Shown piece by piece: positions 35,037-39,097 of a stretch of DNA of 64,000 nucleotides. The notes under the pieces are model-generated. The model was not told the DNA's origin. It made no database searches and worked only from the letters and a program-made list of their open reading frames with translations. Source of the DNA: Enterobacteria phage RB18; the sequence record NC_054906.1, one strand, 5' to 3'. Both the position numbers and the translations under genes were made by a program. Within the stretch, counting starts at the first letter, position 1. Every line of letters starts with the position of its first letter.

Positions 35037-37301
35037 TCATAATTTACAGGATGAACAATCTTCAGCTTTTGGAGTTTCTATTTCATAATCATCAGTACCA
35101 GAACCATCGCGGGTATTGTGATAATAGAAATTTTTTCCGCCAAAATACCAAAAATACAAAAGGTCATCAATCATTATTGACATTGGAACCTTGCCTTTAG
35201 GGAAGATTTGGGGGTCATAGTATGTATTCGCCGAAGCTGATTGACAAACCCATTTCAGCATAATAGCTACCTGCGTAAGATAAGGTTTATTACCTTTCTT
35301 AGCTAATTTCCATGTATAGTCGTAAAGGTCTATGTTATGCTCAATATTGGGCACGACTTGATTAAAGGAGCCCTCTTTTGATTCTTTAACAGAGACTGGT
35401 CCACGTGGAGGCTCGATACCGTTTGTACTGTTAGAAACTTGGGAAGATGACTCACATGGCATAAGTGCTGATAATGTGCTATTACGGATGCCAAAGAGCT
35501 TAAGGTCTTCCCGCAACGACGACCAGTCACAAACGTATTTTGGAGCTGCGATTTGGTCAATCTTTTTATTGTACCAGTCGATAGGTAATTCGCCTCGAGA
35601 CCAACGAGTGTCTGAATAATATTCACAAGGTCCTTTTTCTTTGGCGAGCTTAATGGATGCTTTAATGAGTCCATACTGTAATCTCTCAAATAGTTCATGT
35701 GTTAAATCGTTAGCATCTTCATAAGAAGCAAAGTTACTTGCCAGCCAAGCTGCATAGTTAGTAACACCTACACCGAGGTTACGACGCTTTTTAGCTTTTT
35801 CTGCTTCAGGAACTGGATATCCTTGGTAATCCAAAAGATTATCAAGAGCACGAACTTGGACTTCTGCCAATTCATTAATTTTATCTTGGTCTTGCCAGTC
35901 AAAATTATCTAGTACGAATGCAGAGAGAGTACACAATCCAATTTCAGCATCAGGGCTATTCACATCATTTGTTGGAATAGCAATTTCACAGCACAAGTTA
36001 CTCTGACGAATAGGTGCCTTTTCACGAATAAACGGAGTGTAGTTATTCGTATTATCAATGAACTGTACATAAATCCTTGCTGTTCCTGAGCGTTCAGTCA
36101 TGAGCAATTCAAATAGTTCACGGGCTTTAATACGCTTTTTACGAATATTAGGGTCTTTTTCTGCTGCTTCGTATAATTCACGGAAACGGTCTTGGTCTTT
36201 AAAATAAGAATAATAAAGCTCGCCACCCATTTCATGCGGACTGAACAAAGTAATGTAATCGTTCTTTCCGAATCGTTCCATCATCAAATCATTCAGCTGA
36301 ACACCATAATCCATATGACGAATGCGGTTTTCTTCTACGCCTTTGTTATTTTTCAAAACGAGAAGATTTTCAACTTCCAAATGCCAAATAGGATAATAAG
36401 CAGTAGCAGCGCCGCCACGAATTCCACCCTGTGAACATGATTTAACTGCAGTCTGAAAATGTTTCCAAAAAGGAATAACACCGGTATGGCGTACTTCACC
36501 CATACCAATCTTAGAACCTTCAGCACGAATCATACCAACGTTAATACCAATTCCAGCGCGTTTAGAGATATATTCAACAATTGAAGCGGAAGCCTTGTTG
36601 ATAGACTTTAATGAATCACCTGCCTCAATAACAACACATGAACTAAACTGTCTAGTCGGAGTACGACAACCAGCCATAATAGGAGTTGGCAATGAAATCT
36701 GTCGAGTGGATACTGCTTCATAAAAATGGATAACATGTTTTAATCTATCAACAGGTTCATCTTGATGCAGTGCCATTCCAATAGTCATAAATGCAAACTG
36801 TGGAGTTTCATAAATTTGACCAGTGGTTTTATCTTTAACTAAATATTTTTCTTTTAATTGCATCGCCCCGGAATAAGTAAATTCCATATCCCGTTCGTGC
36901 TTAATTTTTGATTCTAAAAATGTAATTTCTTCTGCTGAATATTTTGACAATAATTCAGGGTCATATTTACCTGCATTTACACAATAAGAAATATGGTCAA
37001 TAAATGAACGTGGTTCATACTGCCCATAAACATGCTTACGAAGAGCGAACATTAAACAACGTGCAGCTACATATTGGTAATCAGGCTCTTCAACCGAAAT
37101 AGAATTCGCAGCGGCCTTAATGACAATAGTCTGAATATCATCAGTTGTCATTCCATCACGGAGATAAGATTTAATATTTTCATATAATTCATAAGGATCT
37201 ACTGATGTTCCTTCAGCTGCCCAAGATAAAACTTTAATAATTTTTTGTGGGTCAAAGCTCTGAGAAACACCACTACTTTTGATAACATTAATTAATTGCA
37301 T
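35037..37301 (-). CDS. nrdA: Ribonucleotide reductase alpha subunit
   Basis: 754 aa; class I RNR large-subunit signatures. Confidence 0.9.
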   Translation of the reverse strand: MQLINVIKSSGVSQSFDPQKIIKVLSWAAEGTSVDPYELYENIKSYLRDGMTTDDIQTIVIKAAANSISVEEPDYQYVAARCLMFALRKHVYGQYEPRSFIDHISYCVNAGKYDPELLSKYSAEEITFLESKIKHERDMEFTYSGAMQLKEKYLVKDKTTGQIYETPQFAFMTIGMALHQDEPVDRLKHVIHFYEAVSTRQISLPTPIMAGCRTPTRQFSSCVVIEAGDSLKSINKASASIVEYISKRAGIGINVGMIRAEGSKIGMGEVRHTGVIPFWKHFQTAVKSCSQGGIRGGAATAYYPIWHLEVENLLVLKNNKGVEENRIRHMDYGVQLNDLMMERFGKNDYITLFSPHEMGGELYYSYFKDQDRFRELYEAAEKDPNIRKKRIKARELFELLMTERSGTARIYVQFIDNTNNYTPFIREKAPIRQSNLCCEIAIPTNDVNSPDAEIGLCTLSAFVLDNFDWQDQDKINELAEVQVRALDNLLDYQGYPVPEAEKAKKRRNLGVGVTNYAAWLASNFASYEDANDLTHELFERLQYGLIKASIKLAKEKGPCEYYSDTRWSRGELPIDWYNKKIDQIAAPKYVCDWSSLREDLKLFGIRNSTLSALMPCESSSQVSNSTNGIEPPRGPVSVKESKEGSFNQVVPNIEHNIDLYDYTWKLAKKGNKPYLTQVAIMLKWVCQSASANTYYDPQIFPKGKVPMSIMIDDLLYFWYFGGKNFYYHNTRDGSGTDDYEIETPKAEDCSSCKL

Positions 37302-37618
37302 AAGTCCTCAACTTGAAAATCGTCTTTAAACAATCGGTTAACTATATGAGCTATTATATCACCATGACACGGCTTTGGTTTACATGTGCATCCTAGCCTC
37401 ATTCCACGTAAAGGCTCTAAATGTGCTTTAGTTATTTCTCCGGATTTAATTCGACGTATAAAATCTTTTTTGAATAATTCAATGGCAGCCTCCCGGCTGC
37501 CAGCATCTTTACCGACGTAATTTCCCCAAAATGTACCACGGTGAATATTAACATCAAAGTCGGATTTGTATTTATTCACTACCCGGCATAGACGGCCCAC
37601 GCTGGAATAATTCGTCAT
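37292..37618 (-). CDS. Small protein with C-terminal CxC-x4-CHGD motif
   Basis: 108 aa; [16 protein letters not shown] cysteine/histidine cluster. Confidence 0.45.
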
Positions 37619-37835
37619 ATTGTTTTTCCGTTAATACAGTAATATCATAGTAACAATCGGAAGAAGTTTTAACTGTGGAAATTTTATTGTCAAAATACTC
37701 ACGAGTCATTTTATGAGTATAGTATTTTTTACCATAAATGGTAATAGGCTGTTCTGGTCCTGGAACTTCTAACTCGCTTGGGTTAGGAAGTGTAAAAAGA
37801 ACAACGCCAGAAGTATCTTTAAATCGTAAAATCAT
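37572..37835 (-). CDS. Hypothetical protein (87 aa)
   Basis: ORF overlapping td start by 4 nt. Confidence 0.4.
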
Positions 37836-38692
37836 ATTGCCATTTTCCCTTTAATTGCTGGATGCGATTCATAATTTTCAAGGATAAAATCTTTCGGTTT
37901 CATGTATTCAGTTAACCAGTAAAGCTGTGTTTCGGTGTCACAATTTCCAAACTCTATAGGCCAATCAATTTTAAGTTCACACAGTTCTTTAGGCTCACGA
38001 CGTAAAATTTCTTTACATTGCGCAGTATGATTCATATAGATGTGAGTATTACCACCAGAAAATATCAAATCTCCTGGGATAAGATTACACATCTTAGCCA
38101 CAATATGCGTCAAGGCAGCGTACGAGGCAATGTTGAATGGCAATCCCAAGAAAACATCTACACTTCTTTGGTACCATTGTAAATCAAGATAACCATTACG
38201 CACATTAAACTGATAGAACATATGACAGGGCGGTAATGCCATTTGATTGATTTCAGCTGGATTCCATGCTGAAACGATTTGACGTCGATCAGTTGGTAAT
38301 TTTTTAATACGATCAATAGTTTCAACTAATTGATCCACACCGCCGAAATCACGCCATTGTTTACCGTATATAGGACCAAGTTCACCACTATGATATCCTA
38401 GGTCTTTAGCCTGGTTTTCATAGTTATCGTCCCAAATAGTTTTACCTTGAATAAGACTGCCATGAGTGCGAAGACGTAAATCATTAACATTGGTAGAACC
38501 GGAAATAAACCATAGAAGCTCAGCAATGCATGCATTCCAGGCGAGCTTTTTAGTTGTTACCGCAGGAAAACCTTTAGTTAAATCCCAGCGTAATTTAGTA
38601 CCGAACAAAGCAATTGTTCCTGTGCCTGTTCGGTCATCGGTTTCATAGCCATTTTCAAAAATGTCTTTAATTAAATCTTGGTATTGTTTCAT
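37832..38692 (-). CDS. td: Thymidylate synthase, uninterrupted
   Basis: 286 aa continuous ORF; PPCH active-site motif; no intron. Confidence 0.9.
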
Positions 38693-38737: not shown

Positions 38738-39097
38738 TCAATACGGTTTAGCATCAAATTTTCTCTCAATTTCAGGCGTGAAATATAATTCTTTACCGCG
38801 TTTGGAAAAGCGACCAATAATATGATAATTATTTTCATCAAATGTGATATTACCAATATCCATAGCTTTCAACCAAATATCGATATTTCTATCCAGCTTT
38901 ATGTCAAAATTCCAATACGGAGAACTATTACCGAAAATACTGCAAGCGGATTCAGTGAAACAACTGCTATAAATCTTGTCTTTAGGAACTACTAATTGAT
39001 AGACGCCTTTAATAAACTGAGGACCTTGCCATTTTGGCTGTTTCACGTCTTTTTCTAATAGAATAGGGTAATAATTAAAATTCATATTTTCCGCCAC
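38738..39097 (-). CDS. Hypothetical protein (119 aa) inserted between frd and td
   Basis: ORF with SD filling a roughly 410-bp frd-td spacer. Confidence 0.5.
   Translation of the reverse strand: MAENMNFNYYPILLEKDVKQPKWQGPQFIKGVYQLVVPKDKIYSSCFTESACSIFGNSSPYWNFDIKLDRNIDIWLKAMDIGNITFDENNYHIIGRFSKRGKELYFTPEIERKFDAKPY

Follow-up and report, generated by a model that had tools for sequence, protein, structure and literature searches.

NrdA.1 of a T4-like phage as a stand-alone DUF4326 protein with a candidate ribose-phosphate site

What does a small protein with a cluster of cysteines and a histidine do in the best-studied viral nucleotide-synthesis operon? The question is raised by nrdA.1, a 108-residue open reading frame that runs from ATG to TAA on the minus strand (37292..37618) of a 64,000-nucleotide stretch of Enterobacteria phage RB18 (NC_054906.1), referred to here as the window. 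A prediction made from the DNA alone had placed this reading frame upstream of nrdA, singled out a CxC-x4-CHGD string in its product and compared it, tentatively, with a DUF4326-type family. The position and limits of the reading frame are borne out and the interpretation is supported; the prediction correctly re-identifies a known gene and family, for which computational function predictions have already been published. Like many T4 genes, nrdA.1 still has no assigned function, and it is readily testable in T4. DUF4326 itself is found among phages, archaeal viruses and giant viruses, in over 10,000 clusters of proteins, and also occurs in a bacterial defence-candidate cassette, and the question becomes what this pan-viral Cys-His domain does.

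We tentatively favour the view, to which we give slightly less than even credence, that DUF4326 is an enzyme with a ribose-phosphate pocket, and that the phage copy tidies or salvages metabolites derived from nucleotides or nicotinamide adenine dinucleotide (NAD), or else counters immunity based on ADP-ribose (ADPr). Such an enzyme is suggested by the family, the predicted fold, the invariant motif, the invariant Asn, Asp and Arg residues, and the fusions of DUF4326 to NAD, ADP-ribose and nucleotide proteins.

Orthology, family membership and conserved residues

By protein identity and synteny, the reading frame is shown to be the orthologue of phage T4 nrdA.1, a known gene in T4-like (Tequatrovirus) phages. 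All 108 residues agree with the protein in the original T4 nrdA record (J03968.1; 100% identity), and the T4 gene—a 12.4-kDa open reading frame between td and nrdA—has the same position and the same 10-nucleotide overlap with nrdA. Yersinia phage phiD1 and other Tequatrovirus genomes share 99.2% identity with the region; the corresponding genes of RB14 carry the names nrdA.1 and nrdA.2 by synteny, and the gene order, with nrdA.1 between nrdA.2 and nrdA, is that of RB14 and of 27 related loci. A few synonymous DNA sites differ from T4, and the td gene here lacks the group I intron of T4 td, so that the phage is a relative of T4 and not T4 itself.

The Pfam DUF4326 profile (PF14216) aligns with residues 11–90 of NrdA.1 over its positions 1–81 of 82, and the score of 78.7 bits (E = 5.5e-22) far exceeds the cut-off of 25; the family that the original prediction had named, and for which it had proposed a Pfam search, is therefore the correct one. 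The protein also matches PHROG 464 (E = 1.7e-48; function unknown). These matches, together with the relatives that tblastn finds in 1779 of the 50,697 phage records, place the reading frame well beyond chance. A search with the DUF4326 profile at E <= 1e-3 retrieved 10,757 representatives of 50%-identity clusters, and structure comparison in BFVD recovered DUF4326 from phages, haloarchaeal viruses, pandoraviruses, pithoviruses and marseilleviruses with template modelling (TM) scores of up to 0.87. NrdA.1 resembles the Pfam and PHROG families along its full length, in every signature residue and in sharing the predicted fold of the other viral members. Scans with NCBIfam and PADLOC models gave no match for NrdA.1 or for the neighbouring NrdA.2.

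Conservation was assessed in an alignment of 281 domains, including cluster representatives just 27–60% identical to the query, across which some 13 residues, polar or small, hardly vary. The signature C77-T-C79-K-P81-K-P-C84-H85-G86-D87, encoded at 37358..37390 (minus strand), is a candidate active or metal site: C77, C79, P81, C84 and H85 each occur in 277–279 of the 281 domains, and G86 and D87 in 265–269. The CxC-x4-CHGD string is exact in the translated reading frame (C77, C79, C84, H85, G86 and D87), and the conservation of its cysteines among homologues, on which the original prediction had hung its proposal, extends throughout the family. A second conserved block, residues 11–33 (37520..37588, minus strand; C11-R-V-V-N15 ... 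D22-V-N-I-H-R27-G ... W31-G32-N33), holds the N-terminal DUF4326 motifs V13-V14-N15, D22-V-N-I-H-R27-G28 and W31-G32-N33. Here N15, D22, R27, G32 and N33 are each kept in more than 93% of the domains, and R42, further along, is likewise well conserved.

The family consensus for this N-terminal block is VVNK..YDVYIGRGS.WGNPF. Where it has DVYIGRG and WGNPF, the Tequatrovirus clade reads DVNIHRG and WGNY, the proline at position 34 being replaced by tyrosine (found in 22 of the 281 domains), and the clade adds a cysteine at position 11. Cysteine occupies this position in 147 of the 281 domains, threonine in 64 and alanine in 9, and it is conserved among T4-like relatives only. C11 was considered as the residue completing a four-cysteine site and was ruled out, with threonine or alanine in about a quarter of the family; because it is not conserved family-wide, it is not a universal fourth cysteine ligand. 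Two longer proteins, P0133 (352 residues) and P0142 (324 residues), contain two or three tandem DUF4326 domains.

Predicted fold and possible distant relationships

An AlphaFold2 model based on a 53-sequence alignment (mean predicted local distance difference test score, pLDDT, 89.7; predicted TM score 0.81) depicts NrdA.1, with high confidence, as an alpha/beta domain of roughly 90 residues. The N-terminal half is modelled as a strand (12–15), a short strand (23–24) and the long conserved loop (R27-G ... W31-G-N33); the remaining elements are helices 42–59 and 64–70, a buried strand (74–77) ending at C77, a loop (78–84) and a helix (85–96) that starts from H85. The 10-residue blocks over residues 71–90 have mean pLDDT values of 96–97. 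The placement of C77 at the strand end, C79-K-P81-K-P-C84 in the loop and H85 at the helix start is predicted to give the geometry of a Cys-phosphatase/rhodanese active-site cradle, to which N15, D22, R27, N33 and R42 are candidate contributors on the basis of their conservation.

Searches of the PDB found nothing under E 0.4 at the sequence level (phmmer and profile hmmsearch) and nothing under E 3 with Foldseek. The C-domain of E. coli RapZ reads ...FDVRFLPNPHW...IGCTGGKHRSVYIAEQL, in parallel with segments of NrdA.1, and DUF488 proteins adjoining DUF4326 genes carry ...DVRLNN...CLLCSEHKPHHCHRRLV. When DUF4326 profiles were compared with single RapZ, YeaO and YbiA sequences in hhalign the results were not significant, the RapZ alignment being in the expected register. 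Against DUF488 the P-values were 0.0018 (4 sequences) and 0.0033 (36 sequences), at a probability of 10–15% that is below the usual significance thresholds; KP..CH was in register, and the reversed-sequence control gave a P-value of 0.77. The motifs themselves differ: a canonical C-x5-R-S loop in the RapZ C-domain, C-x-E...C-H-R in DUF488, and C-x-C-x-P-x-x-C-H-G-D, without the arginine, in DUF4326. NADAR (PF08719), which comprises YbiA-like ADP-ribose/ribosyl N-glycosidases, is set apart by the lack of the Cys-His motif of DUF4326: NrdA.1 gave no hidden Markov model match to it, and the profile-to-sequence comparison was not significant.

A clade of RapZ-C, DUF488 and DUF4326 was reportedly defined by Burroughs and Aravind in 2023. 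DUF4326 has been stated by the Aravind laboratory to form one of the clades within the rhodanese-phosphatase superfamily, with a predicted role in processing the terminal phosphates that the ribose of ADPr derivatives carries (PMC9503650; PMC7824862). Our hhalign and model results are consistent with a rhodanese-phosphatase placement without proving it.

The same cluster lends itself to another explanation, in which C77, C79, C84 and H85 form a purely structural Cys3-His zinc site and NrdA.1 is a small adaptor or regulator without catalytic activity, serving for instance ribonucleotide reductase (RNR) or the T4 complex that synthesises deoxynucleoside triphosphates (dNTPs). Three invariant cysteines and one histidine do fall within nine residues, and DUF488, which keeps C...CH and has a glutamate at the equivalent of C79, displays a swap between ligand types. 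We nevertheless consider a structural zinc unlikely. The family offers only four candidate ligands, two of which (C84 and H85) are adjacent—a poor geometry for one ion—and C11 is not conserved; the Pfam scan of NrdA.1 gave no zinc-finger family match, and nine more invariant polar or glycine residues would be unneeded by a stabilising site. The fusion of DUF4326 to catalytic domains that process ADPr or nucleotides, described below, also argues against it.

Gene context, domain fusions and proposed function

Within the Straboviridae, the order td-DUF4326-nrdA is kept down to about 62% identity, and in members with RNR genes elsewhere td-DUF4326 is followed by denA and RNA ligase 1. The ancestral T4 order is td-nrdA.1-[nrdA-nrdB]-denA-rnlA, with the RNR genes relocated in Aeromonas-type phages. 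A link to RNA repair, considered for the adjacency of RNA ligase 1 and GIY-YIG genes in these Aeromonas-type T4-like phages, was rejected since ancestral gene order explains it. Independently of the T4-like phages, Rak2-like jumbo phages have a DUF4326 gene within the anaerobic RNR operon, between nrdD and nrdG: one Rak2/121Q-like jumbo phage (L050:3106-5757) has the order nrdD, DUF4326, nrdG, and another (L070:2714-5757) has a 120-residue GrcA-like glycyl-radical protein (TIRVSGYAV) between nrdD and the DUF4326 gene. In one metagenomic phage the DUF4326 gene lies directly upstream of a 1223-residue RNR. The small size of the protein, its conserved adjacency to nrdA in Straboviridae and its position between nrdD and nrdG in jumbo phages would all suit the adaptor mentioned above, but an RNR gene is absent from the vicinity of about 90% of the viral copies sampled.

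That sample was drawn without bias by searching viral contigs for a degenerate DNA pattern that encodes CxCxPxxCHGD, which gave 120 loci (L088-L207), 108 of them with a complete motif-bearing open reading frame, representing 105 independent groups. Recurrent neighbours among these groups were an N6/N4 DNA methylase (5), deoxycytidine monophosphate (dCMP) deaminase and an unknown protein (4 each), and a 5'-3' exonuclease, class Ia RNR and class II RNR (3 each). Over the whole stretches, 12 of the 120 DUF4326 loci (1.00 Mb) contain a gene for RNR alpha, 4 contain td and 6 one for dCMP deaminase, against 0 for each in 120 random-pattern viral loci (L214-L333; 0.99 Mb). This comparison is biased in that some queries came from the DUF4326 set (the T4 NrdA query alone gives 7 versus 0), several matches are related by descent, and DUF4326 favours large phages. 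What can fairly be said is that DUF4326 genes tend to be sited in modules for nucleotide or DNA metabolism and have no obligate partner. In the GAP32-like jumbo phages (L055:3726-7254, L059:3732-7556 and L075:3875-6909) a second DUF4326 locus is found, with genes for a Thg1-like 3'-5' nucleotidyltransferase, several unknown proteins, an N6/N4 DNA methylase and RlaP, a pol-beta family protein of an RNA-repair pathway, as neighbours.

Recurrence beside class Ia, II and III RNR genes and td would also be expected of a thiol-redox relay that serves RNR or thymidylate synthase in the manner of arsenate reductases or Cdc25-type members of the superfamily, in which a nucleophilic cysteine works with resolving cysteines, and three invariant cysteines, one of them at the strand-end nucleophile position, could support such chemistry. 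T4, however, encodes its own dedicated RNR reductant, class III RNR generally needs no dithiol, most DUF4326 members are not near an RNR gene, and the fusion partners are related to ADPr and NAD rather than being redoxins; we regard a redox relay as very improbable.

The fusion partners were surveyed in 54 multidomain DUF4326 representatives. SLOG domains are found as mSLOG in 7 and as YAcAr SLOG in 6, and NADAR in 5, plus 1 that matches a DarT1-associated NADAR model. Macro, TIR (P0178), RNase H, DNA polymerase A (P0267) and phage-type RNA polymerase (P0221) each occur once, and the two polymerase fusions may be gene-calling artefacts. In bacteria, DUF4326 is part of a conserved three-gene operon encoding DuOB (PF22557), DUF488-N3a (PF22751) and mSLOG::DUF4326. 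The copy on an E. coli chromosome (L208:5339-7034) lies beside resolvase and integrase genes, and that of Pseudomonas mandelii (L211:4286-6040) is at an unrelated chromosomal site; a DUF488 gene followed by a long DUF4326 gene is also present in four viral contigs (L056:1915-3050, L073:4249-5288, L081:4249-5288 and L109:297-1321). The DuOB and DUF488 proteins of the cassette match the PADLOC defence candidate PDC-M45 (PDC-M45A and PDC-M45C), and PADLOC models gave no match for its SLOG::DUF4326 proteins. The phage gene differs from the cassette in standing alone, without DuOB, DUF488 or SLOG partners.

NrdA.1 could also be imagined as a stand-alone version of the DuOB-DUF488-SLOG::DUF4326 conflict-cassette enzyme that processes DNA or RNA ends, or modifications, on polynucleotides and not on small molecules. 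The cassette has a partner with an oligonucleotide/oligosaccharide-binding (OB) fold, a nucleic-acid-binding type, lies on integrase/resolvase-flanked islands and includes the partners that match PDC-M45, and links to DNA modification have been proposed by the Aravind laboratory (PMC7824862). Genes for N6/N4 DNA methylases, 5'-3' exonuclease, Thg1-like and RlaP RNA-repair proteins and T4 RNA ligase 1 are among the recurrent neighbours, and DNA polymerase A, RNA polymerase and RNase H as fusion partners would fit as well. Inherited gene order nevertheless accounts for the adjacency to RNA ligase and denA in T4-like phages, the polymerase fusions are single cases that may be artefacts, and the 108-residue protein has no recognisable nucleic-acid-binding module; we consider this explanation unlikely.

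Under the interpretation that we favour, NrdA.1 would be an enzyme, not a scaffold, made together with the enzymes of dNTP synthesis and having an accessory function. Its ligand would contain ribose-phosphate and could, for example, be a small molecule derived from ADP-ribose, a nucleotide or the terminus of a nucleic acid; a phosphate or ribosyl linkage would be processed through a C77/H85 centre in a phosphatase/rhodanese-like cradle, with C79 and C84 acting as metal ligands or as resolving thiols. The role could be the clean-up or salvage of nucleotide- or NAD-derived metabolites or, as a second option, the destruction of immune signals or modifications that the host builds on ADP-ribose. 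Residues that stay near-invariant across clusters of such low identity represent enzyme-like conservation and were counted in favour of this interpretation. Several points weigh against it. The classical C-x5-R or C-x4-R signature of phosphatases and rhodaneses is absent in NrdA.1, which has no arginine at +5 or +6, and the loop after C77 is longer than the classical one and contains the invariant P81. No conserved partner gene was found across the 105 independent viral groups (the commonest neighbour occurs in 5 of 105), and since no neighbour dominates, viral gene context is a weak guide; much of the linkage to RNR is inheritance within one phage family. Finally, the searchable literature holds no biochemical or genetic data for any DUF4326 protein. 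An activity on ribose-phosphate or ADP-ribose-derived compounds, if true, would add an enzyme class to the arms race over NAD and ADPr, and might account for the recurrence of DUF4326 beside ribonucleotide reductases.

We consider it unlikely that DUF4326 is a new class of Cys/His enzyme, possibly metal-assisted, that either destroys immune signals or adducts based on ribose-phosphate or is an unrecognised accessory factor of RNR. In the first case NrdA.1 would be a stand-alone counter to the DuOB-DUF488-SLOG::DUF4326 (PDC-M45) cassette or to TIR/SLOG signalling; the second draws on the insertion of DUF4326 in class Ia, II and III RNR clusters of unrelated phages. The carriers of such a class would be viruses of bacteria, archaea and eukaryotes.

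Gene limits, overlaps and neighbours of nrdA.1

The ATG at 37618 is credibly the best start of nrdA.1. Homologues from other genera start two or three residues ahead of the invariant Cys/Thr-Arg-Val-Val-Asn, and the predicted strand beta1 (residues 12–15) begins upstream of an internal GTG at V14. From this GTG, nrdA.1 is annotated as a 95-residue protein in RB14 (L001:3493-3780; window 37579) and in several other records, and other gene callers give lengths of 97–101 residues. The GTG start was rejected, as it would delete the conserved C11-R12-V13 and part of beta1, and because of this loss the 95- to 101-residue versions are probably mis-annotated.

At its other end nrdA.1 overlaps nrdA, as had been predicted, within the gene string frd-td-nrdA.2-nrdA.1-nrdA. 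The nrdA gene (35037..37301, minus strand) encodes the 754-residue alpha subunit of class Ia RNR, identified from the list of open reading frames and from the annotation of identical regions in related phages. The stop codon of nrdA.1 (TAA, 37292-37294) lies beyond the nrdA start codon (ATG, 37299-37301), giving an overlap of 10 nucleotides, ATGCAATTAA (37292..37301, minus strand), and a GAGG Shine-Dalgarno sequence for nrdA (37306..37309, minus strand), annotated as a ribosome-binding site in the T4 record J03968.1, falls within the final nrdA.1 codons. Translational coupling of the two genes is plausible given this overlap, and close relatives keep the tight spacing. Expression of nrdA need not depend on translation of nrdA.1, because nrdA has its own Shine-Dalgarno sequence and a promoter annotated inside nrdA.1.

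Inside nrdA.1, the T4 record (1988) annotates a late promoter, two stem-loops and the -35 and -10 elements of the nrdA promoter, which correspond to 37477-37482 and 37455-37460, respectively. A perfect 7-bp G+C-rich hairpin, GGCAGCC-GGGA-GGCTGCC (37484-37501, minus strand), codes for AGSREAA and is marked in that record as a stem-loop upstream of the nrdA promoter. Three related loci (L005, L006 and L012) retain it with loop changes or a G·U pair, and three others (L014, L017 and L020) have lost it; for the 81-nucleotide fold the z-score is -1.96. The element annotated as a late promoter is AATAAATA (37563-37576, minus strand), which matches the T4 late consensus TATAAATA at 7 of 8 positions and lies where nrdA.2 and nrdA.1 overlap.

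This upstream overlap is out of frame: the last 47 nucleotides of nrdA.2 (37572..37618, minus strand) are at the same time the first 47 of nrdA.1. The nrdA.2 gene (37572..37835, minus strand) encodes an 87-residue protein that matches Pfam DUF5496 (E 2.2e-63) and PHROG 2458 (function unknown); among the related loci, its tblastn matches are confined to the closest Tequatrovirus relatives, plus a weak match in one other (L022). Upstream of nrdA.2 and nrdA.1 lies td (37832..38692, minus strand), identified from the list of open reading frames and related-phage annotation, an uninterrupted gene for a thymidylate synthase of 286 residues, and frd (dihydrofolate reductase) is also upstream, beyond nrdA.2. 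Between frd and td, a 119-residue open reading frame (38738-39097, minus strand) matches PHROG 1928 and has no Pfam match. Its RB14 counterpart is annotated as "flanked by 9 bp repeat," which suggests that it is a small insertion.

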